From the NCBI GenBank assembly GCA_021157605.1, contig JAGGWG010000020.1, forward strand, positions 1,110 to 65,109: DNA of 64,000 bases, written 5' to 3'. Made by a program: the position numbers and the translations under genes. The notes beneath the pieces are model-generated. The model worked only from the letters and a program-made list of their open reading frames with translations, did no database searches and had not been told where the DNA came from. Position 1 is the stretch's first letter. Each line of letters opens with the position of its first letter. The stretch is from a bacterium. GTDB lineage: Bacteria > Patescibacteriota > UBA1384 > JAGGWG01. This document shows positions 1 to 37,633 of the stretch, one piece after another.

Positions 1-302
1 AAAGAGTAGAACGAAAACCTACGCCACTAATTGCTAAACCAGAAAAAGCTCCAGTAAAAGAAAAACGAATAGAGATCGGAAACCTTGGCGGTATAAAAAT
101 AAATCTAAGAGGACAAATAGAAGAAATCCTTCCGCAAACAAAAATGTTAGTTAAAGAAGAGGAGATTATTTACAGTGGCCAAGAGATAACTCCCGGAGAA
201 AGAATCAGATTTACCTCCAAAGAAGGCAAATCCATTACTCTTGTTTATGAAGGTAAAGATTACAATGATAATGCGATCTTCCAAGTAATAGAACAATTTT
301 AA
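1..302 (+). CDS. 3' end of an upstream CDS (partial, ~99 codons, frame 3); hypothetical protein ending ...ITLVYEGKDYNDNAIFQVIEQF
   Basis: Uninterrupted reading frame from the window edge to TAA at 300-302 in AT-rich DNA; not in the supplied ORF track because it has no start in-window. No recognisable domain. Confidence 0.35.
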   Translation, partial: RVERKPTPLIAKPEKAPVKEKRIEIGNLGGIKINLRGQIEEILPQTKMLVKEEEIIYSGQEITPGERIRFTSKEGKSITLVYEGKDYNDNAIFQVIEQF

Positions 303-316
303 AATAAGTCAAAAAA

Positions 317-2398
317 ATGACCAAACCAAAAAACGAGCAAAGCCTTGAACAAGATACTGAAACCCAAATCCCTGTTATGCCTGAAGAACAAACAGCCCCA
401 ACTCCTCCTCCAACTGAACCAAGCAGTGAAGGGATAGAAGGAGAAGCTGAAACAACAAAACAGGAAAAAGAAGGAGAAGAAATAACAAAAACAGAAACAG
501 CCACAGAGATAAATAAAACTGAAGAAGAAACACAAAAAGAATTGCCAACTCTTGAGGAAGAAAAGCTGTCTGCTAAAGTAGAGGTTAAACCCGGAGCTGA
601 ACTGCCGCCATTAAAAACAGGAAAATCATATTATTATAAAGACCAATCAGGCAACCCAAGAATAATCCATATTGCTGCCAGAGATGGTGATAAACTAACA
701 GTTAGGTTTGAAAAACTCACACCTACAGATAAAGGAAATTGGCAGCTTGCTCCTGACCCAGAAGACAATCAAGAATATCAGATAGACCATGAGGATCTTG
801 CCCCAAGATTAAGAGCAAGAATCAGCCAAGCCAAGCTAGATCCAGAAACACTAGAAAGAGAGTTTGAACAAAAAGAAAAGGAATACAATATAGACAGCAA
901 AAGAAAATCTCAGCCAAGAAGTAGTTTTTCCGTCTCTCCAATCCAAACTCTTTCTGCAGCTCAACAAAAAGGAGAACAAAGAAAGCAAGAGCCAAAACCC
1001 AGGAAACAAACAAAAGAAACAAAAAAGAAAGCAGAAAAAATTTACCAAAGAACTAGTACAGGCGAAAAAACTCAAGAGTCTACACGTGAAAAACAGAGCG
1101 AATTTCCAGCAACAGAAACAAGAGAAATTGAGTTAGCTGAATCTGACCCTCTCTTAAAATGGGCACAAGAAAAATTAGGTTCCAAAGATCTCAAAGTAGA
1201 ACTGATGCCAGCCAAAGAAAAAAAAGAAAGAATAGTATTAATCTCTGGAGGCATATATAAAGACAAACACAGCGACACTTACTATATTGTACAAACTGTC
1301 TACCCTTTTCCCTTTTCAACTTCAGAGTGTATATACGACAACGAGGAAAAGAAATGGAAAATAAGAAAATCACAAATACCAGCAGGTGATTTTCTAAAAT
1401 TAATAAGAAGCGGTGATATCGAAATAATTAAACCTGACAAAGGCGAATCACCAGCTCAAAAAGTTCCAAAAAAATTAAGAGAAAATCGATATTTTGCTAA
1501 TCATTATCTTTTAGCAATTGCCCAAAGAGCAGCCAGTAAAGAGTTTAAAGGAAGCAGAAACGAAGGCGAAAAGAGAGCAAAAGAACGCCGTCAAAAAATT
1601 GTCGCTTTGAAAAATATGCTAATAAATGGTATGCGGCAAGGATTTATATGGGAAAAGATGCAAACTGGAGAAAAGTTTATTTTAGAAAAATTAACTCCGA
1701 CAAGAGTAAAGTTAAGAAATGCTGAAACAGGAGAAGAGCTTTTTCTCTCTAATCCCACATTCTTCCTTATGAATTATGACCCAGTAGAAAGAAGGCAAGA
1801 AAAGAAAACTCAAGAAACCGCACCAGAAAAAAAACAAACTGAAGAAAAAATAGAGAAACAACCGCAAGAACAGCCAGAAGAAATAGAAAACCAACCCTCA
1901 GAAGAACAACCTCAAGAACAAACAGAAGAAACAGCACAAGAACAAGCCGAAACCAAACCTTCTGACAACACTCCTGAAACATTCCAGATTACAAAACAAC
2001 TACCAACAAAGCCTTATTTTAGAGAACCTCCCTTTGAATCTAATCCTGAAGAGCCATCTTCTAACCCATACACAAATATCTTTCTGGAAAACGCTCAAAA
2101 TTATATAGGAGAACAAATTCTTCCTGAACAAGCCAGAACTCTAAAAATAGGAGAGATTATCTTTAGGGGTGAGGTTAGAGATAATACTATAAGCGGCCGT
2201 TATGCTAAAATTTCAGGCATTACAGATGAAGGAATAAGATACCGACTAATAAATTCAGACAATAATTTTGGTCCTAAAGAGCCAAAAAAACTAAGCAGGA
2301 AAAAAGAAAGAGAAATTGCTTTTTCTGAAATTGCTTCTTCTGAAGAAGAGGCAGAAAACCAGAATAAATATCTCCTTTACAGGGTAAACTTGGGATAA
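317..2398 (+). CDS. Large hypothetical protein (693 aa) with Glu/Lys/Thr/Gln-rich low-complexity N- and C-terminal regions and an internal duplicated module (EKLTPT motif twice)
   Basis: Long ORF with ATG at 317. N-terminus is P/T/E-rich (PTPPPTEPSSEG); the central segments KSYYYKDQSGNPRIIHIAARDGDKLTVRFEKLTPTDKG and GEKFILEKLTPTRVKLRNAETGEELFL repeat the exact hexapeptide EKLTPT. No family recognised by eye. Confidence 0.7.
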   Translation: MTKPKNEQSLEQDTETQIPVMPEEQTAPTPPPTEPSSEGIEGEAETTKQEKEGEEITKTETATEINKTEEETQKELPTLEEEKLSAKVEVKPGAELPPLKTGKSYYYKDQSGNPRIIHIAARDGDKLTVRFEKLTPTDKGNWQLAPDPEDNQEYQIDHEDLAPRLRARISQAKLDPETLEREFEQKEKEYNIDSKRKSQPRSSFSVSPIQTLSAAQQKGEQRKQEPKPRKQTKETKKKAEKIYQRTSTGEKTQESTREKQSEFPATETREIELAESDPLLKWAQEKLGSKDLKVELMPAKEKKERIVLISGGIYKDKHSDTYYIVQTVYPFPFSTSECIYDNEEKKWKIRKSQIPAGDFLKLIRSGDIEIIKPDKGESPAQKVPKKLRENRYFANHYLLAIAQRAASKEFKGSRNEGEKRAKERRQKIVALKNMLINGMRQGFIWEKMQTGEKFILEKLTPTRVKLRNAETGEELFLSNPTFFLMNYDPVERRQEKKTQETAPEKKQTEEKIEKQPQEQPEEIENQPSEEQPQEQTEETAQEQAETKPSDNTPETFQITKQLPTKPYFREPPFESNPEEPSSNPYTNIFLENAQNYIGEQILPEQARTLKIGEIIFRGEVRDNTISGRYAKISGITDEGIRYRLINSDNNFGPKEPKKLSRKKEREIAFSEIASSEEEAENQNKYLLYRVNLG

Positions 2399-2421
2399 TC
2401 CTTTATTTTTTATAATTTTTC

Positions 2422-2450
2422 TTGATTTTTCTCTTTTTTTATGCTAATTT
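2422..2450 (+). promoter_or_regulatory. Candidate sigma-70-type promoter (TTGATT -35, 17-nt spacer, TAATTT -10) upstream of the sigma-region-4 gene
   Basis: Hexamer spacing read by eye in the T-rich 79-bp intergenic region; a perfect TATAAT also sits at 2411-2416. Weak evidence. Confidence 0.2.
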
Positions 2451-2477
2451 TTGCTCTAATGTCAATAATTTTTTTAT

Positions 2478-3461
2478 ATGTTAGTAAAGCCTAAAAAAGA
2501 GCTGGACAAACTTTTTCAGATTCTGCCGCAACGCCCCAAAGAGCAAAGAGAAAAAGATGTTCTCTTTGCCCGTTTTGGTATTAATGGCAAAGAACAAAGC
2601 CTACAAGCAATAGGCAACCGCTACCATATTACTCGCGAAAGAGTACGGCAAATTCAGAATCAGGGGATAAAAAACCTGCACAAAGCAGCTAAAAAAATAA
2701 AAATCTACAGACAAATAGCCAAAAAAGTAGAAAAACAAGCAGGAATTCTCTCTCTTGAAACCGCTTATAAAATCTTTTTGCCCAAAAACGCTACTAAAAA
2801 AAGCAAAACATTTCTTTTTCTTTTCTTGGTAGCCAACCCCCATCTGCGTTATTTTAAAGAAACCTCTAAAAACAATCCGTTTTTTACTTTTAAAATCAGC
2901 CCTAAAAAAATTAAAAAAATCTTTCAGAGAACGCTTTCTTTATTCAAAAAAGAAAAACAAGCCTTAAAAATAAGTTTAGCAGCTAAAAAATTAAAAATAG
3001 AGACAAAGCAACTAAAGGAAGTGGCCAACATTCTTAAAGAAGTAGATATTAGAGAGGGAAAGATTGGTTTAACAAGTTTCCCAGAAATCAATCCTAAAAC
3101 AACTGAAGCTAAAATTGACTTTATTTTTAAAAAGTACCAAAAACCTCTGCATTTTAGTAAAATAGCTTATCTAATCCGCAAAGAAAAGCTTTATTCCAAA
3201 AAACCAACTGAAGCTACAGTGCATAATGAGCTCATTAGACATAGGCATAAATATACATTAATAGGCAGGGGTATATATGCTTTAAAAGAGTGGGGATATA
3301 CTGAAGGAACAGTTAAAGACATAATTGCGCAAATCATTAAAAAATCCAATCGCAAACTCAGCCGGGAAGAAGTAATTGCTGAAGTCTTAAAACAACGCCA
3401 AGTAAAAAGAAACACTATCCTTTTAAATTTAGCTGGCTTTAGAAAAGAACTCAAAGCTTAA
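2478..3461 (+). CDS. Sigma-70 region 4 (4.1+4.2 HTH) domain protein with ~240-aa Lys-rich C-terminal extension; no region 2
   Basis: REKDVLFARFGINGKEQSLQAIGNRYHITRERVRQIQNQGIKNLHK matches the sigma-70 region 4 consensus (RE.EVL..RFGL...TLEEVG..F.VTRERIRQIE..AL.KLR). It sits at the extreme N-terminus, and the remaining 240 aa are K-rich with no sigma regions 2 or 3. Confidence 0.7.
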   Translation: MLVKPKKELDKLFQILPQRPKEQREKDVLFARFGINGKEQSLQAIGNRYHITRERVRQIQNQGIKNLHKAAKKIKIYRQIAKKVEKQAGILSLETAYKIFLPKNATKKSKTFLFLFLVANPHLRYFKETSKNNPFFTFKISPKKIKKIFQRTLSLFKKEKQALKISLAAKKLKIETKQLKEVANILKEVDIREGKIGLTSFPEINPKTTEAKIDFIFKKYQKPLHFSKIAYLIRKEKLYSKKPTEATVHNELIRHRHKYTLIGRGIYALKEWGYTEGTVKDIIAQIIKKSNRKLSREEVIAEVLKQRQVKRNTILLNLAGFRKELKA

Positions 3462-3493
3462 AAACCATCTTTTTGCTTTTCTCCTCTTTGCTT

Positions 3494-3521
3494 TTGCGTA
3501 TTTTCCTGATATCTTTATAAG
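3494..3521 (+). promoter_or_regulatory. Candidate promoter (TTGCGT -35, 16-nt spacer, TATAAG -10) ending 5 nt before the ATG of the ATPase gene, which could give a leaderless or very short-leader mRNA
   Basis: Hexamers read by eye in the 64-bp gap; no Shine-Dalgarno motif between the -10 and the ATG at 3526. Confidence 0.2.
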
Positions 3522-3525
3522 AAAT

Positions 3526-6234
3526 ATGGATACAGCTTCAAGCTTTATTTTATTGTTAACTCTAACAGGAGTTTTTTTAGGATTATACTACTATCGCCAA
3601 AAGCAGAAACTAGCCTACACCAAAGAACAGTTAGATAAAGTGGAGTGGAGTCTTCTTTCTTTAGCAGTTCCCAAAGAAAATGAAAAAGGACCAGAAGCAG
3701 CTGAAAATATGTTTGCCGCTTTACACGGCATCTTTCAGGAAAACCTACCTGAAAATCTCCAATCCCAAATCAGCTTTGAAATAGTCTCTAAACCTCAAGC
3801 TATAAACTTCTATGTTGCTTGCCCTAAGTATTTAGTTGATTTTATTGAAAGCCAAGTTTATGCCCAATATCCCAGTGTAGAAATCAGAAAAGTAGAGGAT
3901 TACATCCGTTTTGCTCCACAAACGCACTTTGCCGTAGGGGAACTCGCTACTACCAAAGAAGATATTCTACCGATCAAAACCTTTCCCAACTTTGAAGTAG
4001 ATCCTTTGTCTTCACTAACTAGTATTCTCTCTAAAATCTCAGGAGACGAACAGATTTGGGTGCAGATTGTGGTACGACCCATAGCTGATGAATGGCAAAA
4101 AAAGAGCCTAAACTGGACCCAAAGCGTAAAGAATACAGGCCGCACTCCGGGATTAGCTTTAAGCACCAGCAGTGTTTTAAAAACATTAATCAATTTTCTT
4201 AAAGAACTGATACAAACAGCCAAAGGAGGCGAAACAGGTGGCGGTGAAGGAGGGGAAGTGCAAATTCCCGGCCCTTTGCAGGCAGCCATAGAAGGAGCAG
4301 AACAAAAAAGCACCAAACTGGGATATAAAACAAAAATTAGGTTAGTAGTTTTTGCTAATGACCCGCAGACAGCTCAGGGGAAACTGCAAAGTGCAGTTGG
4401 CTCTTTTAAGCAATTCAATACTCTTAATGCTAATGGTTTTGCCTTGGGTAAGGTAGTTATAGATGACCCACAGGCTTTAAATCAATACCAAAAAAGATAT
4501 TTTCTTAATGACGGTTTTATCCTTAATGTAGAAGAACTAGCTTCTCTCTTTCATTTACCCAATGTCTCTGTAGAAACTCCGAAAATAGCCTGGTCTGGAG
4601 CTAAAAAAGGCGAACCGCCAAAAAATTTGCCTATTAAAAAGAAAAAAATCAACAAAGACTTAACTATTTTTGCTGCTACTGATTTTAGAGGCTCAAAAAA
4701 AGAGTTTGGCATTTTAAGAGAAGACCGCAGACACCATATGTACTTTATTGGTAAAACCGGGGTCGGCAAATCAACGGTTTTACACAATATGGCTATTTCT
4801 GACATTCAAAAAGGGGAAGGGTTAGCGGTTATTGATCCCCACGGTGAATTAGTAGAATCTCTGCTAGATTTTATCCCTAAAGAAAGAATAAAAGATGTTG
4901 TTTATTTTAATCCTGCTGATCAAGACTATCCTATTGCCTTTAATCTTTTAGAAAATGTAAAACCTGAATTAAAAACCATTGTTGCTTCTGGACTAGTAGG
5001 GATATTTAAGAAAATTTGGGCTGAATCTTGGGGACCGAGATTAGAGTATATACTCAGAAACGATATTTTAGCTCTTTTAGACTATCCTGATGCCACCCTT
5101 TTGGGAGTAACCAGAATTTTAGTAGATAAAGATTTTCGCCAAGAGGTAATAAAACACATCAAAGACCCGGTAATAAAAGAATTTTGGATATCTGAGTTTG
5201 AACAATACGACCAACGTTTCCGCACTGAAGCTATTGCTCCCATACAAAATAAAGTAGGTCAATTCTTGGCTTCACCCTTAATCCGCAATATTGTGGGGCA
5301 AAAAAGATCAACTTTGGATATAGGCGAAATCATGAACTCACGAAAAATACTTTTAATAAACCTATCCAAGGGCAAAATAGGGGAAGATGCCTCTGGCCTT
5401 TTGGGGGCAATGTTAATTACTAAGATTCAGATTGCCGCTTTAGAACGGGCTTCTATTAAACCGGAAAAAAGAAAAGATTTCTATCTCTACGTAGATGAAT
5501 TCCAAAACTTTGCTACTGAGGCTTTTGCCACTATCCTTTCTGAGGCAAGAAAGTACCGCCTAAACCTCATTATGGCTAACCAGTATATTGCTCAAATGGA
5601 AGAGCAGGTAAGAGATTCTGTTTTTGGCAATGTCGGAACCTTGATATCTTTTAGAGTAGGGCCATCAGATGCTCCTTACTTAGCCAAAGAGTTTATGCCC
5701 ACTTTTGAAGAAACAGATCTTATAAATTTGGATAAATTCCATATCTACCTAAAGATGTCTATTAAAGGCATTACTTCGCCGCCTTTCTCAGCTGAAACTT
5801 TGCCTCCTTTTGACGGCAAAGAGGGACTGGCAAAAGAAGTAATTGAACACAGCCGCAAAATCTATGCCCAACCTTTAGTCAAAGTAAAAAAAGAAATAGA
5901 AGATCAAGCACAAAGCAAAATCATTGAGGCTTTTGAGGATTTGGTAAAACCCAAAAAAATAAAAGTAGGGGATAAAACCTTTCTTGTACGCAAAGGCACA
6001 ACTGGCCATTACTGGTATTTTCCTTTAAACAATTCAAAAAGGGAAAAGCCAAATAAAAAGAAAGACAACCCCACAACTCAAAAAGAATCTTCGCCAGAAC
6101 CAAAAAAGAAAAAAAGAGTTCTTAAAAAACTGATTCAAGAAGCACTAAAAGAAAAAGAAGAACCTAAAAAAGAATCAAAAGACAATCTTAATAATAGCAC
6201 ACTAAAAAAAGAAAAAGGGGAGATAGAGCTTTAA
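3526..6234 (+). CDS. Membrane-anchored P-loop NTPase, type IV secretion coupling-protein-like (VirD4/TraG/TraD family, FtsK-HerA superfamily), 902 aa
   Basis: N-terminal single TM (SSFILLLTLTGVFLGLYYY followed by RQKQK, so N-out/C-in). Walker A YFIGKTGVGKST is followed by a VIDPHGEL motif (compare the DPKGE motif of T4CPs), and the Walker B region is LYVDEFQNF. About 370 aa of unassigned domain with a Gly-rich linker (GGETGGGEGGE) separate the TM from the P-loop, and the C-terminus is a K/E-rich tail. Family assignment is by motif only. Confidence 0.55.
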   Translation: MDTASSFILLLTLTGVFLGLYYYRQKQKLAYTKEQLDKVEWSLLSLAVPKENEKGPEAAENMFAALHGIFQENLPENLQSQISFEIVSKPQAINFYVACPKYLVDFIESQVYAQYPSVEIRKVEDYIRFAPQTHFAVGELATTKEDILPIKTFPNFEVDPLSSLTSILSKISGDEQIWVQIVVRPIADEWQKKSLNWTQSVKNTGRTPGLALSTSSVLKTLINFLKELIQTAKGGETGGGEGGEVQIPGPLQAAIEGAEQKSTKLGYKTKIRLVVFANDPQTAQGKLQSAVGSFKQFNTLNANGFALGKVVIDDPQALNQYQKRYFLNDGFILNVEELASLFHLPNVSVETPKIAWSGAKKGEPPKNLPIKKKKINKDLTIFAATDFRGSKKEFGILREDRRHHMYFIGKTGVGKSTVLHNMAISDIQKGEGLAVIDPHGELVESLLDFIPKERIKDVVYFNPADQDYPIAFNLLENVKPELKTIVASGLVGIFKKIWAESWGPRLEYILRNDILALLDYPDATLLGVTRILVDKDFRQEVIKHIKDPVIKEFWISEFEQYDQRFRTEAIAPIQNKVGQFLASPLIRNIVGQKRSTLDIGEIMNSRKILLINLSKGKIGEDASGLLGAMLITKIQIAALERASIKPEKRKDFYLYVDEFQNFATEAFATILSEARKYRLNLIMANQYIAQMEEQVRDSVFGNVGTLISFRVGPSDAPYLAKEFMPTFEETDLINLDKFHIYLKMSIKGITSPPFSAETLPPFDGKEGLAKEVIEHSRKIYAQPLVKVKKEIEDQAQSKIIEAFEDLVKPKKIKVGDKTFLVRKGTTGHYWYFPLNNSKREKPNKKKDNPTTQKESSPEPKKKKRVLKKLIQEALKEKEEPKKESKDNLNNSTLKKEKGEIEL

Positions 6235-6264
6235 TTTTACTCTGAACAAAATTCAGCAGCCTCT

Positions 6265-6290
6265 TAATATTGTGCGACGCAAATAAAACT
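6265..6290. repeat. TTGTGCGAC motif copy A (near-palindromic core TGCGACGCA) at the start of the long noncoding tract
   Basis: ttgtgcgac at 6270-6278. The reverse complement of its core tcgcacaat recurs at 6890-6898 and a direct variant ttatgcgac at 6904-6912, about 610 bp away. Confidence 0.4.
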
Positions 6291-6561
6291 AAACCAAAAT
6301 CGTGGATTTGTCTAAAATACTGCAATCCCTAAATTTTAAATTTCGGCTATTAATTAAACATTAGAAAACAAAAAACTAAAAGCAAAAGAGGGAAGACTAA
6401 CACAAAAACTAAAAATTAAAGCTCAAACAAAAAATTTTTAAAAAATAATTAATTTAAAACTTCAAAAAGCCAAAAACAAACAAAGAACAAGAAAATGAAT
6501 TAAAAATTAGGTCTATACTTGCCAAACAGCCAGTCAAGACCTAGTTAGGAATATATAAAAA

Positions 6562-6603
6562 AGCCAAAAACAGGCTTATAAGGGCAGTTTTGGCTGTTTT
6601 TTA
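6562..6603 (+). terminator. Candidate intrinsic terminator (imperfect hairpin gccaaaaac...gttttggc followed by TTTTTT) about 330 bp downstream of the ATPase gene
   Basis: Stem plus U-run read from the sequence. It is preceded by a second hairpin (taggtct...agaccta at ~6507-6540), which could mark the end of a long 3'UTR or an independent small RNA. Confidence 0.35.
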
Positions 6604-6880
6604 TATTTTACCTCAAATAAGGCAAAAATAAAGCATTTATTTTTGTTTTTTAGAGCCATAAAAAACAAAGGGCATAAAAAAGGTTATAAAAACGAAAAAG
6701 AAAACAAGAGTTTAAAAATAAAACAGCAAAAAATATTTTAAGCACTAAAATCACAATAAAACAAAAAAGAGAAAGGGCATTATTATAAAAAAGTGCTAAA
6801 AGAAAAATATTTTTAAAAATAAAAACAAAAAAACTTAAAAAAGCAAAAAGAGTAGAAGGAAAGGAGGGAGGTTTGTTATT

Positions 6881-6922
6881 GGTATATCTTCGCACAATGT
6901 ATCTTATGCGACATAATATACC
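6881..6922. repeat. 42-nt element bounded by a 7-bp inverted repeat (GGTATAT...ATATACC) that encloses two TGCGA half-sites in inverted orientation (tcgcacaat / ttatgcgac)
   Basis: Read directly from the sequence. It lies just downstream of the strongest purine-rich SD-like sequence in the window (aggaaaggagggagg, 6857-6871). Confidence 0.4.
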
Positions 6923-7084
6923 TTAGGGATAAGAACTGGCAAAGGCCTAATTTCAAAAAATAAAAAAGAAAATTAAAAAACAACAAAATTGTTTAAGAAT
7001 ATTTCCAGAATATTGAACCTTTTGCTTTGATCAAAAACAACCAAAAAACAATTTTTTCTACCCCCTCTCCCCTATTCAAAAACT

Positions 7085-7984
7085 TTAGACCACCTTTTTC
7101 TTCTTTCTTTGCAAAAGATCCACTAAAAGAGGGGTGGCTAAAAATATAGAGGAATATGTGCCAATACCTACTCCGATTGCCAAAGCCAAAGAAAAGTTTT
7201 TAATACTCTCCCCTCCTAAGAGGTATAAAGACAAAAGAACCAAAATAGTAGTAAAAGCAGTTCCCACTGAACGAGCCAATGTCTGCCAAATAGATAAGTC
7301 AGCCAAATCAGCTAATGCCCCCTCCTCTTTGATAAGATTTTCTCTGACACGGTCAAAAACAACAATGGTATCATTTACAGAATAGCCAATAGTAGTCAAA
7401 AGAGCGGTAATAAAGTAAGAATCAATAACTATTTTTGGACTAAAATGGCCCAAAAAAGAAAAACTGCCCAAAACAATCAGAGCATCATGAATTAAAGCAA
7501 TAACTGCCACTATACCAAAAAACCAACTGGAATACCCCTCAGGCACACTGCGAAAAGCATAAGCTACATATAAAATAATAGCTATAGAAGCCAGAACAAC
7601 CCCTAATAATGCCTTGCGCTGTAAATCCTTACTGACTGAAGGGCCAACACTCTCATAAGAAAGTTCCTTAAAATCAGCTACTTTTCTTAAAGCTTCTTTG
7701 AGCTTGCAATAATCATTCTCCTCTAAGTTTTGGGTGCGGATAAAATACTCTTTTTCTGAAGGTTGGATTTGAAAATAATCAAAACCAGCCTGTTTTAGTT
7801 GGGCGGCTACTCTGTCTTTAGTCACTTCTTTTTCAAACCTAATTTTTAATACACTACCTCCGGCAAAATCTATACCAAGATTAAAACGCCAGAAAACAAC
7901 TAAAAGAATGGAAACCAAAACAAGCAATAAAGAAAAAAGGTAAAACACTTTTCTGAATTTTATAAAACTAAAAGGTAATTTCAT
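7085..7984 (-). CDS. secF: Protein translocase subunit SecF
   Basis: GIDFAGGSVL motif and multi-TM SecD/F architecture; 4-bp overlap with the upstream secD. Confidence 0.85.
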   Translation of the reverse strand: MKLPFSFIKFRKVFYLFSLLLVLVSILLVVFWRFNLGIDFAGGSVLKIRFEKEVTKDRVAAQLKQAGFDYFQIQPSEKEYFIRTQNLEENDYCKLKEALRKVADFKELSYESVGPSVSKDLQRKALLGVVLASIAIILYVAYAFRSVPEGYSSWFFGIVAVIALIHDALIVLGSFSFLGHFSPKIVIDSYFITALLTTIGYSVNDTIVVFDRVRENLIKEEGALADLADLSIWQTLARSVGTAFTTILVLLSLYLLGGESIKNFSLALAIGVGIGTYSSIFLATPLLVDLLQRKKKKVV

Positions 7985-9297
7985 TTTTTAGTTATTATTT
8001 TCCCTGCCCTTTCAGGCACAAAAGCCTGTAAAAATGTGCGCGTAATAGTAATAGCTGAAAACATGCTCATCAAAATCCCAATGCCTAAAGTAACAGCAAA
8101 ACCTTTTATTTGGCCAGTTCCAAAAGAGTATAAAATTAAAGCAATCAAAAGACTGGAAACATTAGAATCTCTAATAGAAGGCCAGGCTCTCTTAAAACCT
8201 TCATTAATAGCCAAGGAGAGATCAGACCCCGATCTAAATTCCTCTTTGGTCCGTTCAAAAATCAAGATATTAGCGTCCACCGCCATACCTATAGAAAGAA
8301 TAAAGCCAGCTATACCAGATAAGGTTAAGGTAAAACCACCCAATTTAAAAAGGGAGAGAACTAAAACTCCATAAATAGAAAGGGCAGCAATAGCCCAAAA
8401 GCCAAAATAACGATAGTTTATCAACATATAAAGAGCCACCAAAAAAAGACCAATAATGCCGGCTACCAAGCTTTTTTGTATTGCTTCCTCACCCAAACTT
8501 GCCTCTACTGTTCTTTCCTCAACCAATTTAATAGGCACTGGCAAAGCACCAGCATTGAGCTGAATAGATAGCCGCTTAGCTTCTTGGGGGGTAAACTGGC
8601 CAGTAATCACCGCTTTGCCGCCAACAATTGCCTCTCTAACTATAGGCAGAGAAACAACTTTATTATCTAAAACAATGGCTACAGGCTTGCCAACATTGCG
8701 TTTAGTTATCTCCTCAAAATGTTTAGCCCCTCTGGAATTAAACTCTATAGAAACCTCCCACTCTTGTGTTTGCTGATTAACTGTAGGCTGAGCCCTTTTT
8801 AGATCTTTGCCAGAAAGTTCAGTCGGCTTAAAGCCAGGCAAAACCTCATTATTTTGATATTTTTTGTCTTCAGTTTGCTCCCAAAACTCAAGCTGGGCAG
8901 TCTGACCTATCAGCTCCTTAGCTTCCTCTAAATCTTTTATACCCGGCAACTCAACCAGAATCCCCCGCTTACCAGAAACAGCAACAGGATTAATCACTGG
9001 TTCACCTATACCAAACTTGTCTACGCGATTACGTATTACTTCCAAAGTAGAATCTGAAGCCGCATTCCGATCCTTAGCCTCTATATTGGAAAGGTCCAGC
9101 TGGTAAAGAAGGTGGGCACCTCCCTTGAGATCCAATCCCAAACGCAAAGGAAAATCATGATGCAAAATCTTATTTCCCCAAGGTAAAATAATCAACAAAC
9201 CTAAAACTAATAAAGCAAAAATTAAAAACAAACGCCAAAAATGTTTTTTTAACCAAATCACAAACTCTATGATAGAAAAGCTTTCTTTACTTTGCAA
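7981..9297 (-). CDS. secD: Protein translocase subunit SecD
   Basis: LGLDLKGGAHLLYQLDL motif typical of the SecD periplasmic domain, followed by an RND-like TM bundle; located upstream of secF. Confidence 0.85.
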   Translation of the reverse strand: MQSKESFSIIEFVIWLKKHFWRLFLIFALLVLGLLIILPWGNKILHHDFPLRLGLDLKGGAHLLYQLDLSNIEAKDRNAASDSTLEVIRNRVDKFGIGEPVINPVAVSGKRGILVELPGIKDLEEAKELIGQTAQLEFWEQTEDKKYQNNEVLPGFKPTELSGKDLKRAQPTVNQQTQEWEVSIEFNSRGAKHFEEITKRNVGKPVAIVLDNKVVSLPIVREAIVGGKAVITGQFTPQEAKRLSIQLNAGALPVPIKLVEERTVEASLGEEAIQKSLVAGIIGLFLVALYMLINYRYFGFWAIAALSIYGVLVLSLFKLGGFTLTLSGIAGFILSIGMAVDANILIFERTKEEFRSGSDLSLAINEGFKRAWPSIRDSNVSSLLIALILYSFGTGQIKGFAVTLGIGILMSMFSAITITRTFLQAFVPERAGKIITKK

Positions 9298-9977: not shown

Positions 9978-10945
9978 AGCTCCTTAATTAATTTTTTAGC
10001 TTCTGATGTATCTTTCACCTTGCCAAAACGAATCCGCCATTTTTTGCTGCCAAAAAAATTTTTTAAATACCAAAATATATGGGGCCGAAAATAAAACCAG
10101 GCATTTTCCCCGTATAACTCTTGGGCTAAACCAAAATGCTCTTTAATTACCTTTTTGCGCTCTGCTAGTAGCGGCTCTGCTTTTTGCCAGCCCCGACTAT
10201 TCAAAAACCTCTGTGGGTTCTCTTTAATTAAATCTAAGTTTTCAAATATCCAGGGGTTTCCCAAAGCGCCGCGGGCAACTAAAGCGCCATTAGGTTTTGC
10301 TTTTAAAAACAAACGAGCCAAATCCTTTTGGGAAAAAATATCACCAGTGGCTATTAAAGGAATACTTAATTTTTGTTTTACCAAATTAAACAGATTCCAG
10401 TCAGCTCTGCCGCCAAACTTTTGTTTTACTGTGCGCGGATGCAAAATCAAAGCATCAACCCCTATTTTGTTTAACTCTCCAGCCCATTTTAAAATCTCCT
10501 TCTTACTGCTAAAACCTGATCTTGTTTTTAAAGAAAGGGGAAGGGTAGTTTTGCGTCGCACAATATCAAGAAGAGAGAGGAGTTCCTTCACCTCTCTAAG
10601 CAAAAAACCACCCATTTTCTGCTTTAAAACATTTTTAACCGGACAGGCAAAATTAAGATCTATAGCATCTACTTTTATCTCTTTTTCTAAAATTTCAGCT
10701 GCTTCAGCTAAAACCTTCCCTTTTCTACCTATAAGCTGAGCCACAAGCGGCCGCTCCCTTTTTTTAAATTTAAGTTTTAAAAAAATAGGCTTCAGCCGCC
10801 GCACCAACCCCTCAGCCGGTATCATCTCAGTAAAAACAAAATCCGCCCCAAAAGAACGGGCAATCTGGCGAAAACAAGAATCAGTATAAGACTCCATTGG
10901 GCCTAAACCAACTTTTCTCAGAGACCAATCAAACTTAGAGTTCAT
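9959..10945 (-). CDS. tRNA-dihydrouridine synthase (Dus family, TIM barrel)
   Basis: DLNFACPVKNV, LILHPRT and ATGDIFS segments resemble the Dus FMN-binding barrel. The start may be a downstream Met. Confidence 0.7.
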   Translation of the reverse strand: MNSKFDWSLRKVGLGPMESYTDSCFRQIARSFGADFVFTEMIPAEGLVRRLKPIFLKLKFKKRERPLVAQLIGRKGKVLAEAAEILEKEIKVDAIDLNFACPVKNVLKQKMGGFLLREVKELLSLLDIVRRKTTLPLSLKTRSGFSSKKEILKWAGELNKIGVDALILHPRTVKQKFGGRADWNLFNLVKQKLSIPLIATGDIFSQKDLARLFLKAKPNGALVARGALGNPWIFENLDLIKENPQRFLNSRGWQKAEPLLAERKKVIKEHFGLAQELYGENAWFYFRPHIFWYLKNFFGSKKWRIRFGKVKDTSEAKKLIKELCKPES

Positions 10946-16264: not shown

Positions 16265-18517
16265 TTAATCTTTTTGTTTTATTTTCTCCCAAGCTTGAGA
16301 AACCATTTCACTAAAAAGATAAGCCCCTACTTGGTTTATGATTCCATGCTGGCGTTTGCCAAATATCTCTCCCTCTCCCCTTTTCTCCAAATCCCTCAAA
16401 GAGATTTTATAAAACGCTTGCGGCTCTTTTATCAGCGAGAGAAAATCTACTAACCTTTCATAAGAACTATCGGGCAATTTTTTAGGCACAGCCACCCAAA
16501 AATAAGAAACTTGGCCAGCACGACCAATACGCCCTCGCAACTGATAAAGATCTCCTATACCCAACCTGGAGCCATACCAGAGAATCATTGTCTGCGCTCC
16601 GGAAATATCTAAACCATGCTCTACAATAGCAGTAGCCACCAACACATCTACTTTTCGCAAAGAAAAACGGCTTAAAGCCTGAGCCAGCTTATCCTTAGGC
16701 ATCCGGCCGTGAGCCACAGCCACCTCAAACCCCATGAATTTAAGTTTTGAAGATATGTTTAAAACATCTTTAATTAAAGGAGCCACAAAATAAACGCCTT
16801 TTTTCTTCTTGGCTGCCCTCTTAATTACTTTTTCAATCCGGGACCAATCACTTTGGGAAAGAACCCTGTCTTTGATTTTTCTTTCAACCCACCCTTCTAA
16901 AACAGACATTGTTTTGATTTTAGAAAGAGAAAGATAAAGGGTGCGAGGTATGGGGGTAGCGGTTAAGGAAAGAACACTTAGGGAAGGATTTTTAAGACGC
17001 CACTTTTCTTTTTGTTTCACACCAAAACGCTGTTCCTCATCAATAACTGCCAAACCTAAATTTTCAGCTTCTAAAGAAGCGAACAAAAGCTTGTGGGTGC
17101 CAATAAGCAAATCAATCTTTCCTTCATTAAACTTCTTTATTATTTCCTGATTCTTCTTTTCTTTTTGCAGACTGCAAACCAAGGCGACCCTAACGGGCAG
17201 GTTTTGCAAACGCTCTTTAAAAACCAAATACTGCTGTTGAGCCAAAATAGTAGTGGGAGCTAAAAAAACAACCTGCTTATCAGGTAAAAATAAAGAAGCT
17301 ACCCGCAACGCCACCTCAGTTTTGCCTGAACCTGCTGGACCGATCAAAAGATGGTCAAAAGGCCTCTTCTGAAATAACAAGTTTTGAATTTCCTGCAAAG
17401 CCTTTTTTTGGGCAGGGGTCAAACTAAAAGGACAGGTTTTTTCCAGATGCTTTAAAAAAAATTGTCCAAATCTTTTGATCTCTATTTTCTGCCTTTTTAA
17501 ACTTTTATAAAGGGCAAAAAGCTTTTTAGCCAGTTTTTCTGCTTCTGCCTCTGCCAATATTTTTGTTTTTTCCCACCCACTTTTGCCAAGAGAGGAAAGA
17601 TGAGGCTTAAGACCAATATATTTAGTCAGCCGTCTTTTTTCTTTTAAGGGAACATACAAATAAGCATTATTTTGAAAACGCAAGTGATAGTAAAATTCTC
17701 TTCTCTCCGCTTGAGGCAGGACTTGCTCATCTAAACTCAAAGGCAGTTGTTTAGGACCAATACCCTCTAGTTTAGCAATTCCGTGATCAATATGGACTAC
17801 ATAATCGCCAACAGAAAAATCAGTTATGCTCTTAAAACGACGAATTTTAATCTTTTTTTGAAAATCTTTGTCAGTAAAAAAATGCCAGCGGCCCAAACTA
17901 AAACCAGAAAAATCCAAAGGAGGTAAAAAATATATTTTTGCCTTTTTAGCCAAAGCCTTCAAAGCTAATTCATAACGGGAAAAGAGAACCACTCGTTGTT
18001 GAGAAGAATGCGCCAAACGGATTACTTCTTTGAAAGTTGAATAGGAATGGGGCTTACATAAAATTAAAGATTCTGAATGTTTAAGTTCAGAAAACTTTAT
18101 GGGATAAACAAAAAGGGAATCAACTATCTCAAGAGATTTTTGGCTGCGTTGGTCAAAAAAATAGATCCTCTCAAGAGTCTGGTCAAAAAACTCTAAACGC
18201 ACGGGATACAAAGAAACATTATCCCAAAAATCAACCACCTCTCCTCTAAAAGAAAATTGCCCTTTTTCATAAACTAGGGGGGATTCAACAAAACCCAAAG
18301 CAGAAAATTTCTGGCGCAAAACTCTCTGGGAATAATCTTTGCCTTGCCTCAGCCAAATACCCTCCCCTCTCTCTTTGGCCGATATGTGTCGCACAATATA
18401 TAGAAAAAGCTCTGGAGCTTGAGGAACCTCTCCTTTTTTTAAAAAAGAGAGAGTGCGCTGAACTTCGGGTTCAGCAGCGAACCCTGTTATTATTTTTTCT
18501 AACGGCCGCATTTCCAT
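16265..18517 (-). CDS. mfd: Transcription-repair coupling factor Mfd, short form lacking the N-terminal UvrB-homology/UvrA-binding module
   Basis: CarD/RID-like segment FSVGDYVVHIDHGIAKLEGI; SF2 helicase motifs GPAGSGKTEVA, DEEQRFGV and LSLTATPIPRTL; TRCF C-terminal domain. Only 750 aa, and rplK begins 48 bp upstream, so there is no room for a longer N-terminus. Confidence 0.8.
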   Translation of the reverse strand: MEMRPLEKIITGFAAEPEVQRTLSFLKKGEVPQAPELFLYIVRHISAKERGEGIWLRQGKDYSQRVLRQKFSALGFVESPLVYEKGQFSFRGEVVDFWDNVSLYPVRLEFFDQTLERIYFFDQRSQKSLEIVDSLFVYPIKFSELKHSESLILCKPHSYSTFKEVIRLAHSSQQRVVLFSRYELALKALAKKAKIYFLPPLDFSGFSLGRWHFFTDKDFQKKIKIRRFKSITDFSVGDYVVHIDHGIAKLEGIGPKQLPLSLDEQVLPQAERREFYYHLRFQNNAYLYVPLKEKRRLTKYIGLKPHLSSLGKSGWEKTKILAEAEAEKLAKKLFALYKSLKRQKIEIKRFGQFFLKHLEKTCPFSLTPAQKKALQEIQNLLFQKRPFDHLLIGPAGSGKTEVALRVASLFLPDKQVVFLAPTTILAQQQYLVFKERLQNLPVRVALVCSLQKEKKNQEIIKKFNEGKIDLLIGTHKLLFASLEAENLGLAVIDEEQRFGVKQKEKWRLKNPSLSVLSLTATPIPRTLYLSLSKIKTMSVLEGWVERKIKDRVLSQSDWSRIEKVIKRAAKKKKGVYFVAPLIKDVLNISSKLKFMGFEVAVAHGRMPKDKLAQALSRFSLRKVDVLVATAIVEHGLDISGAQTMILWYGSRLGIGDLYQLRGRIGRAGQVSYFWVAVPKKLPDSSYERLVDFLSLIKEPQAFYKISLRDLEKRGEGEIFGKRQHGIINQVGAYLFSEMVSQAWEKIKQKD

Positions 18518-31037: not shown

Positions 31038-32891
31038 CTAAAACTGCTCTTTTAGTTCTGCCCCCATAATTGAAACCCGCAAAGCCTCCTCTAATGTTGT
31101 TTCTCCTCTGGCAGCTTTAACTAAAGCATCTTCAAACATAGTCACCATACCTTTTTTTCTAGCTGCCCTTAAGATGTCTGTCCCCCTAACTCTTTGAGTA
31201 ATAAGTGCCTGTATTTCGTCATCTATCTCTATAGCCTCAAACACGCCAATTCGTCCCAAATACCCCTGATGGCAACGCGAATCCTCTATCCCTTTATAAA
31301 ATCTATAAGGAGGCTCGGGAATATCTAAACCGCTATTTTTAGGTATCTGTTTAATAATGCGAGCCACTTTTTCATAAAGAGCTTCAGGTATCTTTTCTTC
31401 AGTTTTGCCATAAGGGCAGATGCGTCTAACCAAACGCTGAGCTATAACTAAATTAATTGCAGAAGCAATCAAAAACGGCTCAATCCCCATATCAACTAAA
31501 CGTGGAATGGCGCCAGAAGCATTGTTGGTATGCAAAGTAGTCAAAACTAAATGGCCGGTCAAAGCCGCGTGGATTGCCATTTCTGCTGTTTCTTTATCCC
31601 TAATTTCACCAATCATAATAATATCTGGATCTTGCCTTAAAATCGACCGCAAACCAGAAGCAAAAGTAAAACCCGCCTGCGGTCTAATTTGTGACTGGGC
31701 AATACCTTCAATTTCATATTCAACTGGATCCTCTAAGGTGACAATATTAACTTCGGACCTGTTAATCATTGAAAGAGCTGCATAAAGAGTTGTTGTTTTT
31801 CCTGAACCAGTAGGGCCGGTAACAACCACCATGCCAAAAGGTTTTCTAATATTTTCTACCATATGCTCATAACTTGCCCCCCTTAAGCCAAGGGTTCTTA
31901 AATCCATCAATTTTTTTTCTTTTTCTAAAATGCGCATTACCACCTTTTCTCCATAAACAGTAGGCAAAGTGGAAATACGCAAATCAATTTTTTTCTCTCC
32001 AAACATCACACTAAAACGACCATCCTGAGGTTTTCTTCTCTCATCAATCCGAAGATCAGCCAAAATTTTGACACGGCTGACTAAAGCCGGAAGCAACTCC
32101 CTTTTAATCTCTGCTACCTGAGACAAAACTCCGTCAATACGATACCGGACTAAAACCTTATGAGAAAAAGGCTGAATATGGATATCTGAAGCTCTTTTAG
32201 AAATAGCAAAACTAATAATAGCAGCTATCATTTGGGGCACATAACCTTTAGCTAAAATATCTCGCAACTCCTGCACAGAACGCGGCTGCTCAACTAATAA
32301 TTTTTCTAAAGATGCCAACGCCTCCTTTTTTGTAGTATCAACAGCTGAAACTTGAGATTTTTTTGTGATCACCCGAGAAACAATATGAGCTGCACCGGCT
32401 TTCTTTTTAAGAATTTCTTTTTTGTAGTCTTTTATAGTTTTTTCTATTTGCGAAGGCAAAGCTCCATAAACCTCTAACTTAACTCTATTCTTATCCTCTA
32501 TATACCTGACCAATGCCCGAACTGCAGGATGCGTAGGCCAAGCAGTAGCTACTTTGTAAACCTTATCCCCCAAATGCTCAAATACTAAAATTTTGTACTT
32601 CTTAGCGATATCTAAAGGTATTTTTTTTAAAAGTTCTTTTGGTTTATGACTATAAAGATTTATTTCAGACACATTAGCTATCTGGCAAAGCACCTTGAGT
32701 ATCTCTCTTTCTCTCTGGCTAAACTTAGTGTATAAAATCTCTTCTAAGCGGTGGTTTTCTTTTTGTTTTATTCTCCTTAAAAGCTCTATCTCTTCTGGAC
32801 TAAAAACTCTTTGCTTTTCTAAGGCCAAAATTATCTCCTCCTCTTGGTCAATAGCCTTTTGGGGACGCAAAGATATCACTTTATTCAACAT
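31038..32891 (-). CDS. pilB: Type IV pilus assembly ATPase PilB (GspE family)
   Basis: N-terminal GSPII_E_N-like region, Walker A VVVTGPTGSGKTTTLYA, GHLVLTTLHTNNASGAIPRLVDMGIEPFLIASA, and a C-terminal tetracysteine-like region. Confidence 0.85.
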   Translation of the reverse strand: MLNKVISLRPQKAIDQEEEIILALEKQRVFSPEEIELLRRIKQKENHRLEEILYTKFSQREREILKVLCQIANVSEINLYSHKPKELLKKIPLDIAKKYKILVFEHLGDKVYKVATAWPTHPAVRALVRYIEDKNRVKLEVYGALPSQIEKTIKDYKKEILKKKAGAAHIVSRVITKKSQVSAVDTTKKEALASLEKLLVEQPRSVQELRDILAKGYVPQMIAAIISFAISKRASDIHIQPFSHKVLVRYRIDGVLSQVAEIKRELLPALVSRVKILADLRIDERRKPQDGRFSVMFGEKKIDLRISTLPTVYGEKVVMRILEKEKKLMDLRTLGLRGASYEHMVENIRKPFGMVVVTGPTGSGKTTTLYAALSMINRSEVNIVTLEDPVEYEIEGIAQSQIRPQAGFTFASGLRSILRQDPDIIMIGEIRDKETAEMAIHAALTGHLVLTTLHTNNASGAIPRLVDMGIEPFLIASAINLVIAQRLVRRICPYGKTEEKIPEALYEKVARIIKQIPKNSGLDIPEPPYRFYKGIEDSRCHQGYLGRIGVFEAIEIDDEIQALITQRVRGTDILRAARKKGMVTMFEDALVKAARGETTLEEALRVSIMGAELKEQF

Positions 32892-37008: not shown

Positions 37009-37035
37009 AAAAGGAATTGTTTTAAAAATAACAAA

Positions 37036-37107
37036 CAGGAGCGGGAGGACTCGAACCCCCAACTCCGGTTTTGGAGACCGGCAGTTTACCAGTTAGCCTA
37101 CGCTCCC
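37036..37107 (-). tRNA. tRNA-Trp(CCA): tRNA-Trp (anticodon CCA)
   Basis: Reverse complement folds as a cloverleaf GGGAGCG/...CCGGT-CTCCAAA-ACCGG.../TTCGAGT T-loop, with anticodon CCA; 72 nt, CCA tail not encoded. Confidence 0.85.
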
Positions 37108-37129
37108 ATTATTAAAACTTAATTTTTAA

Positions 37130-37312
37130 CTACCTTACTTCCTCATGTAGTGTTCTTTGACGGCAAACAGAACAATACTTTTTAAGTCTAAGCTTCTCTT
37201 GTTCTTGCACTAAACGCCGCGACTTACTTACGCGGTAATTTAAGCGCTTGCATTTTTGACAAGCTAATTTTACCAAATTTTTCTTTTCCTTTTTTGCTGT
37301 TGCTTCTGCCAT
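37130..37312 (-). CDS. rpmG: 50S ribosomal protein L33
   Basis: LACQKCKRLNYRVSK...KKYCSVCRQRTLHEE matches the L33 zinc-ribbon pattern (LAC..C..RNY...K......KKYC..C..HT.H.E); lies directly upstream of tRNA-Trp, the conserved arrangement. Confidence 0.85.
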   Translation of the reverse strand: MAEATAKKEKKNLVKLACQKCKRLNYRVSKSRRLVQEQEKLRLKKYCSVCRQRTLHEEVR

Positions 37313-37378
37313 AACTAATTTTTATTTTATCTAATTGATTTTAATTAGCAACCAAAAGATACCCTCCTTTGATTATTT

Positions 37379-37464
37379 TGCCCGGGGAGGGAGTCGAACC
37401 CTCACGTCCGCAAGCGGACAAGGGATTTTAAGTCCCTTGCGTCTACCAATTCCGCCACCCGGGC
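37379..37464 (-). tRNA. tRNA-Leu(TAA): tRNA-Leu (anticodon TAA)
   Basis: 86-nt cloverleaf on the reverse strand: acceptor GCCCGGG, anticodon arm AGGGA-CTTAAAA-TCCCT, long variable arm, T-loop TTCGACT, discriminator A. Confidence 0.85.
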
Positions 37465-37549
37465 ACAAAACCTCTGGACAAAGGGCCTTAAATTTTTTAA
37501 TGCCACCCAAATCAATCTCTTTAATTCCGTTTAGGCATCCTATTCTTTT

Positions 37550-37633
37550 TGGGGAGGGCAGGATTCGAACCTGCGTAGCCACAAGGGCGCCAGTTTTACA
37601 GACTGGTGCGTTTGACCACTCCGCCACCTCCCC
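37550..37633 (-). tRNA. tRNA-Tyr(GTA): tRNA-Tyr (anticodon GTA)
   Basis: 84-nt cloverleaf on the reverse strand: acceptor GGGGAGG, anticodon arm CCAGT-CTGTAAA-ACTGG, long variable arm (bacterial Tyr type), T-loop TTCGAAT. Confidence 0.85.

Follow-up and report, generated by a model that had tools for sequence, protein, structure and literature searches.

The 64-kb window analysed here (64,000 nucleotides of contig JAGGWG010000020.1, from a member of the Patescibacteria or candidate phyla radiation, CPR, close to Berkelbacteria) carries near its left edge three plus-strand genes, coding for a 693-aa protein (a), a 327-aa protein (b) and a 902-aa ATPase (c), which are followed by a noncoding spacer with a palindromic site of the dif type (Table 1). 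The open reading frame (ORF) coordinates, the gaps of 79 bp between (a) and (b) and 64 bp between (b) and (c), the strand layout and the 850-bp noncoding tail agree with an earlier note made from the sequence alone, as does the observation that this is the sole long plus-strand block in the first 39 kb: beyond the three genes the ORF scan of the window found no plus-strand ORF of at least 150 aa before position 40398. No promoter-like or terminator-like sites were found in the two short gaps, which is compatible with, though no proof of, a single transcript for (a)-(b)-(c). The earlier note had further described a three-gene cassette. The ORFs stand, the size of the unit does not, since the plus-strand block continues upstream into a fourth gene cut by the window edge, a homolog of the fast-evolving proteins of 715-842 aa found upstream of (a) in relatives (tblastn match to an 842-aa protein of the relative L002). 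An ENA contig of identical sequence (L001) supplies 885 further bases of this gene. In the relative L210, whose proteins (b), (c) and (a) are 99.4%, 98.3% and 79.8% identical to those of the window, the plus-strand block begins about 13 kb further upstream and holds a second, paralogous ATPase of the same DUF8128 type (833 aa, 39% identical to (c)) and five more genes without Pfam families. The upstream order read from L001 and L210 is paralogous ATPase (833 aa), 380 aa, 281 aa (minus strand), 123 aa, 715 aa, (a), (b), (c). Protein (c) is one of two paralogs, the other one lying upstream of the window edge, and the three-gene cassette is an artefact of that edge, the segment being the distal end of a larger chromosomal locus.

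Table 1. Features at the left end of the 64-kb window; positions are those of the window.
Feature	Position (nt)	Strand	Size or residues	Basis and remarks
Fourth plus-strand gene, 3' end only	3-302	+	99 codons and stop	Translation open to window edge
Gene (a)	317-2398	+	693 aa
Gene (b)	2478-3461	+	327 aa
Sigma70_r4 of (b)	2544-2678	+	23-67	Pfam, E 5e-12
HARE-HTH of (b)	3126-3239	+	217-254	Pfam, sub-threshold, 23.6 bits (cut-off 25.9)
Gene (c)	3526-6234	+	902 aa
Transmembrane helix of (c)	3532-3588	+	3-21	Transmembrane prediction
VirB4-type N-domain (DUF8128) of (c)	3634-4575	+		Pfam and structure comparison
P-loop domain of (c) with inserted helical domain	~4648-5910	+
Walker A of (c)	4750-4776	+	G409-T417	Invariant in 65 homologs
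Walker B of (c)	5482-5499	+	Y653-E658	Invariant in 65 homologs
Low-complexity Lys/Glu tail of (c)		+	After residue 800
Convergent noncoding spacer	6235-7084	.	850 bp	Between stop codons of (c) and secF; GC 26%
Inverted half-dif TATTGTGCGAC	6268-6278	+		Reverse complement of left arm and first centre base of CPR consensus
Island 2, AATTAGGT	6505-6512	+		Sequence and spacing conserved in 6-7 relatives; no RNA fold, no Rfam match
Bidirectional terminator-like hairpin	6550-6607	.		In window and L210; not kept in more distant relatives
Island 3, CTCAAATAAGGCAAAAATAAAGCA	6612-6637	+		Sequence and spacing conserved in 6-7 relatives; no RNA fold, no Rfam match
dif-type site, TCTTCGCACAA / TGTATC / TTATGCGACAT	6887-6914	+		11-bp inverted arms, 6-bp centre
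secF	7085-7984	-		ORF; Pfam labels of orthologs; convergent with (c)
secD	7981-9297	-		ORF; Pfam labels of orthologs

The description of (c) as a P-loop ATPase with a single transmembrane (TM) helix and the motifs of type IV secretion system (T4SS) coupling proteins is borne out, with the Pfam models TrwB_AAD_bind (residues 401-716), TraG-D_C and T4SS-DNA_transf all passing their cut-offs. No Pfam match to FtsK_SpoIIIE was obtained and none to CagE_TrbE_VirB, the VirB4 family, at E <= 0.1, while the NCBIfam model VirB4_plasma matched the P-loop part alone with an E value of 1.2e-3. The TM helix is followed by Arg/Lys residues, and by the positive-inside rule, which relates such residues to the orientation of membrane proteins, the remainder of (c) is predicted to be cytoplasmic. 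Many positions besides the Walker motifs are invariant among the 65 homologs compared, and from the invariance of Walker A and B themselves (c) should be an active ATPase. AlphaFold models reached a predicted local distance difference test score (pLDDT) of 83 for residues 1-805, and a pLDDT of 88.7 with a predicted template modelling score (pTM) of 0.85 for residues 37-350. The top full-length Foldseek matches are TrwK chains; TrwB, DotL and Cag-beta are also strong structural matches. The N-domain, 310-330 residues long, adopts the VirB4 N-domain fold in the models, its next best structural match being EccE3 of the type VII secretion system (T7SS), and the ATPase domain is equally near to the VirB4 C-domain and to TrwB/VirD4. 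Protein (c) falls within the ATPase lineage of the T4SS and, as modelled, is a hybrid with the architecture of VirB4, the sequence profile of a coupling protein and a membrane anchor of its own.

A phmmer search with the N-domain alone returned 2,127 representative clusters. Many of these matches (P0297-P0392) are proteins of about 415-535 aa with little beyond the DUF8128 module and no ATPase domain. TrsD-like proteins have been reported as the most abundant T4SS-associated component in CPR, next to virB4 (PMC12102498), and the ATPase-less DUF8128 proteins may be these, a candidate link. In the tail of (c), at about residues 810-835 (window 5950-6030), a family-conserved motif K.G...Y.E.....G..WY was also noticed, in which W830 and Y831 are nearly invariant.

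Protein (b) had been credited with sigma-70 region 4 as its only recognisable part. The region is there, and a sub-threshold HARE-HTH domain had been overlooked. Sigma region 2 is absent from (b) and all NCBIfam sigma models score far under their cut-offs; with region 4 present and region 2 missing, (b) is not a sigma factor. It also departs from the RNA polymerase delta subunit (RpoE) in that its HARE-HTH is central instead of N-terminal and its C-terminus is basic, with no acidic tail. At least 4,727 clusters of homologs share the two-domain make-up and size, under the source names helix-turn-helix (HTH) protein, sigma-like protein or RNA polymerase delta subunit. Its domains make (b) a multi-HTH DNA-binding protein built from sigma-70 region 4 and HARE-HTH/winged helices. 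In Southlakia epibionticum, SEML1_0294 (349 aa, annotated "RpoS", PF04545 at 27-72, PF05066 at 225-283; one tri-helical and three winged-helix ECOD domains) is essential by transposon sequencing (Tn-seq), and SEML1_0293 (921 aa, PF10412 at 402-719) is non-essential in co-culture (Wang et al. 2023, PMC10633639 and its supplement). These two are likely the orthologs of (b) and (c), respectively, and "RpoS" is a misnomer for SEML1_0294.

More than 6,450 homologs of (c) were found, and every named one comes from Patescibacteria, the closest named being from Berkelbacteria. A GTDB scan with one genome per species gave at least 600 matches, the best 80 of which constitute the species loci referred to below; they are 41-55% identical to (c) over almost its full length and come from Saccharibacteria, Berkelbacteria, Nomurabacteria, Peregrinibacteria, Gracilibacteria, Dojkabacteria, Uhrbacteria and Buchananbacteria. 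A published survey counted 5,713 "T4CP homologues to VirD4" (T4CP, type IV coupling protein) in 2,918 of 3,035 Patescibacteria genomes, just 148 of them near virB4, and its authors could not rule out exaptation (Quinonero-Coronel et al. 2025, PMC12102498). The resulting figure of about two per genome fits the two paralogs seen at this locus. Of the 75 species loci with room for it, 53 (71%) have (b) as the immediate same-strand neighbour upstream of (c), at a median gap of 129 bp, and the paralogous ATPase is within 10 kb of (c) in just 5 of 80. The two paralogs of the window's clade flank five to six orphan genes, several of which are single-TM or highly disordered; in Saccharibacteria (b)-(c) occurs on its own, the gene order being topA-(b)-(c)-GNAT-dif. 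Of the trio whose co-occurrence in relatives had been at issue, (b) and (c) thus recur together and (a) does not.

The tetranucleotide comparison places (c) at a distance of 0.0146 from the window, the background being 0.0154 +/- 0.0023, and its GC content is equally typical; only the low-complexity (a) and the spacer deviate. The spread across CPR and this window-typical profile indicate a native, vertically inherited locus, and a horizontally acquired island was ruled out by the composition of (c). No integrase, island-flanking repeats or variable presence were found for the (b)-(c) locus. Genes (b) and (c) are the conserved core, inherited vertically across CPR classes. An anti-phage system was also considered, as PADLOC gave hits to mad8 (3e-13) and HerA with the ATPase domain of (c) and to MzaA with region 4 of (b) alone; it was rejected because the partner genes are absent and the family is universal in CPR and vertically inherited.

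The tail behind (c) had been described as carrying repeats, hairpins and a possible cis site. A conserved cis DNA site is indeed present, whereas most of the "repeated motifs" are A-rich low complexity. Relatives keep a long spacer at the same position (617-1,813 bp), but the spacers of relatives with ATPases 69-83% identical to (c) can hardly be aligned save for four islands. The strongest island is TTCGCACAATGTATCTTATGCGAC at 6889-6912, the core of a dif-type site that is invariant in 7 relatives with otherwise unalignable spacers and present as one full copy in the window. Compared with E. coli dif, GGTGCGCATAA / TGTATA / TTATGTTAAAT (PMC3025954), the site has 20 of 28 positions identical, the best score of any stretch of the window. 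As a stand-alone test this identity was discarded as not significant: 8 of 100 shuffled windows reach 20/28, and the similarity to E. coli dif alone is hence weak proof. About 620 bp to the left lies an inverted half-dif with 11 of 11 bases invariant in all relatives. Across many CPR loci, additional half-sites cluster around dif in excess of expectation (41 seen, about 15 expected); elements that exploit Xer may have left them behind as scars, or they may serve as accessory sites.

Neither Rfam (gathering and E-value thresholds) nor a tRNA scan gave a match in 6235-7084, and RNAalifold found no conserved structure in the conserved islands; a known or structured RNA was rejected on these three results. 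The small spacer ORFs (81 aa on the minus strand at 6650-6895; 53-87 aa in relatives) were dismissed likewise, their DNA not being conserved across relatives. An exact 12-mer of dif left arm and centre bases, ATATTGTGCGAC, occurs at 6267-6278 (+), 10555-10566 (-) and 18388-18399 (-), that is, in the spacer and in the unrelated genes dus and mfd, and all three copies aim at dif. Its 7-mer core has no further copy in the window, and relatives carry comparable same-strand copies within cysS and dus. It was not retained as a polar motif akin to the FtsK-orienting KOPS, with only about four independent sites in the clade and mixed orientation in the wider set.

With the CPR dif consensus GTCGCACAAT-RTATN-TTTTRCGAC and at most 4 mismatches per site call, a dif-type site was found downstream of (c) in 42 of the 68 species loci with at least 1.5 kb of sequence past (c), always on the same side and in the same orientation, at a median distance of 721 bp past the end of the (c) tblastn match. 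In four further loci, including Peregrinibacteria and Gracilibacteria, the best position weight matrix matches are weaker palindromes at +565 to +755 bp. Gene orientation converges on the site: to its left 83% of the residues in long ORFs are on the plus strand and to its right 12%, as measured in the 36 loci whose flanks are long enough. In 33 of these 36 the left side has the higher GC skew (Wilcoxon p 1e-6). The cumulative GC skew of L210 rises, forms a plateau over (a)-(c) and falls from the site on; that of L009 peaks at the site. A cumulative peak within 100 bp of the site is seen in 7 of 35 loci, compared with 0.6 expected. In roughly half of the 35 both flanks have negative skew, which makes the marker mixed, and the idea that the cumulative maximum marks the site universally was given up, since it is true in those 7 loci only. 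In the window, secF and secD are the final genes of the minus-strand block of the opposite replichore. On this sequence evidence, the palindrome at 6887-6914 is very probably the dif site of the chromosome, and the spacer the junction of the replichores.

A scan of metagenome contigs anchored on the motif instead of on (c) gave 120 loci, with one copy per contig. In 10-11 of them, all without (b) and (c), a gene for an XerC/D-like tyrosine recombinase lies 0.25-0.9 kb from the motif (Phage_integrase 2e-40; XerC TIGR02224 1e-55 and XerD TIGR02225 3e-54, catalytic half). The loci concerned are L095, L101, L110, L129, L155, L174, L184, L190, L192 and L209, with L170 having the gene on the other side. 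XerS-difSL and XerH-difH likewise have the recombinase gene next to the site. Among the 34 motif-anchored loci with at least 4 kb on the relevant side, (b) and (c) are both present in 6 and (b) alone in 5, in every case on the expected side and strand. In the loci with (b) but not (c), the site is still preceded by (b), at a distance of about 0.9 kb, and by a small gene. Opposite (c), the classes differ in what flanks the site: secDF in the window's clade, the end of the dcw operon in Saccharibacteria. The (b)-(c) flank is shared by both, and secF is downstream of (c) in just 4 of 53 species loci. The linkage of (b)-(c) to dif is frequent, orientation-specific and common to classes with a different opposite flank, and it is not universal.

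In about 79 Saccharibacteria loci (e.g., L033, L043, L051, L173, L200) the site directly follows the last gene of a dcw-type operon that is convergent with (b)-(c). At +0.4 to +6 kb from the motif lie genes that we take, from reading their sequences, to be a transpeptidase (ftsI), MraY-, FtsW- and MurG-like genes and a gene for a 305-aa FtsQ-like membrane protein; only the clusters and positions were computed.

By domain content and coordinates, the window genes are members of the group formed by the patescibacterial VirD4-like T4CP homologues and SEML1_0293/0294. They share with the latter pair the upstream gene with Sigma70_r4 and HARE-HTH and a chromosomal location far from virB4, with no relaxase; the VirB4 fold of the N-domain, the conservation of (b)-(c) and the position next to dif are new with respect to PMC12102498 and PMC10633639, in which they were not found. 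Protein (c) has the N-domain fold and C-terminal RecA-like ATPase domain by which VirB4 is recognised. It differs from VirB4 proteins (TrwK of R388; VirB4 of T. pseudethanolicus) in having an N-terminal TM helix of its own and no CagE_TrbE_VirB match, and no VirB3, VirB6 or VirB8 genes were recognised near it. According to the literature, most CPR genomes have a separate bona fide VirB4. It also has the P-loop NTPase with an inserted all-alpha domain and the hidden Markov model (HMM) match expected of a T4CP. Unlike VirD4/TrwB, which usually have two TM helices, it has one, and about 330 residues of VirB4-like N-domain are placed between anchor and ATPase; it is also not linked to a relaxase or T4SS, and its likely ortholog is dispensable while the T4SS is essential. 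No relaxase or T4SS Pfam families were found in the large ORFs of the window or within +/-10 kb in seven relatives, and the reported lack of a relaxase, VirB4, integrase or transposase holds for the neighbourhood, with no VirB4 HMM match.

With FtsK/SpoIIIE and XerCD-dif the locus has in common the ATPase superfamily, the membrane anchor and a gene adjoining a dif-type site. The combination of motor domain, gamma winged helix and multi-TM N-terminus that characterises FtsK/SpoIIIE is not found in (c), and the counterpart of the winged-helix DNA recognition of FtsK is here on a separate protein, (b). Streptomyces TraB with clt likewise pairs one ATPase gene with a cis DNA element close by and does without a relaxase. 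Unlike (c), TraB is FtsK-like with its own C-terminal winged HTH, is borne by plasmids or actinomycete integrative and conjugative elements and recognises 8-bp repeats.

Taking all this together, we lean towards reading the segment as part of a vertically inherited, terminus-adjacent locus with a (b)-(c) core and a motor derived from a T4SS, and not as a conjugation cassette. The functional part of this reading, in which a ring ATPase and a DNA-recognising (b) handle DNA at the membrane, is drawn by analogy and is tentative, possible rather than probable. Protein (c) would assemble as a ring ATPase at the cytoplasmic face of the membrane. Accessory proteins of the relaxosome such as TrwA and TraM act on coupling proteins, and the gamma domain provides the DNA recognition of FtsK; (b) might serve (c) in the same manner. 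The substrate of the pair would be the DNA of the chromosomal terminus, given that (b)-(c) recurs directly before dif in one orientation, and its role would be auxiliary to FtsK and Xer, replacing neither, such that a T4SS-derived motor would have been exapted to a chromosomal function. A stand-in for FtsK was considered and rejected: the FtsK of S. epibionticum (SEML1_0096), which has an alpha domain, a gamma domain and a 4TM region, is essential, and the species also has an XerC-like recombinase (PMC10633639 tables). A more specific version, which we regard as improbable, is a CPR-specific machine for terminus handling, in which (b) would recognise DNA flanking dif, with the half-dif and islands 2 and 3 as candidate sites, and load (c), which, working next to FtsK and Xer at the site of division, would move or tether the DNA of the terminus. 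If true, it would mean that a T4SS ATPase lineage has been exapted to chromosome segregation or dimer resolution.

A number of points weigh against such a role. To our knowledge, DNA pumping by VirB4-type ATPases is not known. The linkage itself has gaps: no site could be recognised within 4 kb in 26 of the 68 ATPase-anchored loci, and 23 of the 34 motif-anchored loci carry neither (b) nor (c). The GC skew changes sign at the site in just 13 of 36 loci, the evidence for a terminus comes from contig-scale profiles, and shuffled windows equal the match to E. coli dif at the rate given above. The 80 species loci are the top-scoring matches, and Saccharibacteria predominate among them. Symmetric inversions around the terminus could keep (c) and dif close with no functional link. 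The orthology with the SEML1 genes is based on length, domain coordinates and gene order; if it holds, an essential SEML1_0294 beside a dispensable SEML1_0293 means that (b) must do more than serve (c). Finally, the essential, gamma-domain FtsK SEML1_0096 exists in Saccharibacteria (PMC10633639).

Four other explanations were weighed. Two paralogous DUF8128 ATPases could drive a CPR-specific export of effectors or surface proteins by a route of the T4SS or T7SS kind, with (a) and its neighbours as cargo or variable structural parts; the earlier note had also allowed for an export module. The bracketing of five to six orphan genes by the paralogs in the window's clade, several of them encoding single-TM-anchored or highly disordered proteins, would suit this, as would an (a) that evolves far faster than its neighbours and has no signal peptide, an N-domain whose fold is that of VirB4 and then EccE3, and a CPR T4SS locus with no recognisable coupling protein. 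But the bracket is lineage-specific and the Saccharibacteria pair does without it. VirB3, VirB6 and VirB8 families were not detected among the neighbours by Pfam, although their CPR homologs are very divergent, and the conserved partner is a DNA-binding protein, unlike the chaperones and adaptors of known secretion types. We consider export unlikely, though it is the least unlikely of the four. Alternatively, (c) could be the missing coupling protein, or a spare one, serving a distant CPR T4SS, (b) an unrelated RNA polymerase factor that happens to be in its operon and the proximity to dif historical synteny. Both domains of (b) have relatives that bind RNA polymerase (sigma region 4 and RpoE delta), which speaks for this view, as do the name delta subunit given by some sources to (b) homologs, the essentiality of the likely (b) ortholog but not the likely (c) ortholog, the T4CP models above cut-off, the strong structural matches to TrwB, DotL and Cag-beta and the frequent location of t4cp genes far from virB4 (PMC12102498). 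It is made rather doubtful by the T4SS core genes being essential in S. epibionticum where the likely (c) ortholog is dispensable, by the VirB4-type N-domain, which canonical T4CPs do not have, by an adjacency of (b) and (c) across classes that would be odd for unrelated genes, and by a (b) with neither a delta-like acidic tail nor sigma region 2.

The remaining two we judge to be much less probable. The minimal, TraB-like DNA-transfer module of the earlier note, in which double-stranded DNA would be pumped by (c) into a second cell, with the repeats downstream as a clt-like cis site, has in its favour a single membrane-anchored FtsK-HerA ATPase accompanied by a DNA-binding protein and a conserved cis element, and the absence of a relaxase among the ORFs of the window and the neighbourhoods of relatives. 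Every point that could be examined here speaks against it: the family is near-universal and vertically inherited in CPR, its composition is native, integrase, island-flanking repeats, variable presence and an FtsK_SpoIIIE match are all missing, and the cis element has the architecture of dif instead of clt or oriT, lies at a replichore junction and elsewhere stands beside Xer genes. The palindrome might also be an operator or loading site of (b), comparable to parS/parB, and no Xer/dif site at all. That (b) stays near the motif even where (c) is missing, in 5 of 34 loci, fits this, as does the lack of significance of the E. coli dif similarity taken alone. The 11-6-11 build with a TGTATC centre and ATAA-type inner arms, the single copy per contig, the adjoining XerC/D-like genes in loci free of (b) and (c), and the 23 of 34 motif loci with no (b) nearby all make such an operator very improbable.

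The families of (b) and (c) are already catalogued, though functionally uncharacterised. The domain combination of the locus is thus not undescribed, as had been thought: the N-domain of (c) is Pfam DUF8128, the family is included in PMC12102498 and the likely orthologs were scored by Tn-seq in PMC10633639. Searches of the literature on DUF8128, on FtsK/dif or XerC in Patescibacteria and on HARE-HTH with sigma returned nothing on this module. Compared with the literature found, the VirB4 fold of DUF8128, the pairing of (b) and (c) across CPR, the CPR dif consensus and the presence of dif after (c) are apparently new. Nearly every CPR genome has about two orphan T4SS-type ATPases, and the partner gene of (c) is essential in the sole CPR species with Tn-seq data. 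The fold of DUF8128 makes these proteins VirB4/T4CP hybrids and not plain coupling proteins, and the dif consensus can be used to locate termini in CPR genomes. The points raised here are open to direct test in the genetically tractable Saccharibacteria.

Protein (a) had been called a Glu/Lys-rich repeat protein. The composition is right (rich in Glu, Lys, Gln and Pro, of low complexity), while its tandem repeats are only weak, with a 24-nt period and 61% matches. No TM helix, signal peptide, Pfam family or NCBIfam family was found in it, and a search of 5.8 billion proteins gave two matches, (a) itself and one relative 81% identical to it. Its tetranucleotide profile is an outlier by more than 5 standard deviations. 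The positional counterpart in L002 is 27% identical, while (c) of the same locus is 83% identical, and it comprises two adjacent genes (6354-7292 and 7309-8895; 312 and 528 aa): residues 89-311 of (a) match the 312-aa protein and residues 303-690 the 528-aa protein. The difference amounts to a fusion or fission of genes in a family that evolves fast. Short beta-rich motifs are common to (a) and the truncated upstream gene. Together with the other genes between the paralogs, (a) is lineage-specific, fast-evolving and outside the conserved core.

A few further observations concern the surroundings. Beyond the left edge of the window, the G+C content at 1001-4000 of L210 is 0.49-0.50, compared with about 0.37 elsewhere; within this interval lie a gene whose 287-aa product has two TM helices and the first part of the paralogous ATPase. 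Pfam at E <= 1e-5 assigned no family to two large ORFs further right in the window, at 34261-36480 (minus strand, 739 aa) and 41321-43345 (plus strand, 674 aa). Nearby are a T2SSE ATPase of the PilB type (31038-32891) and a cluster of tRNA genes (37035-37633).

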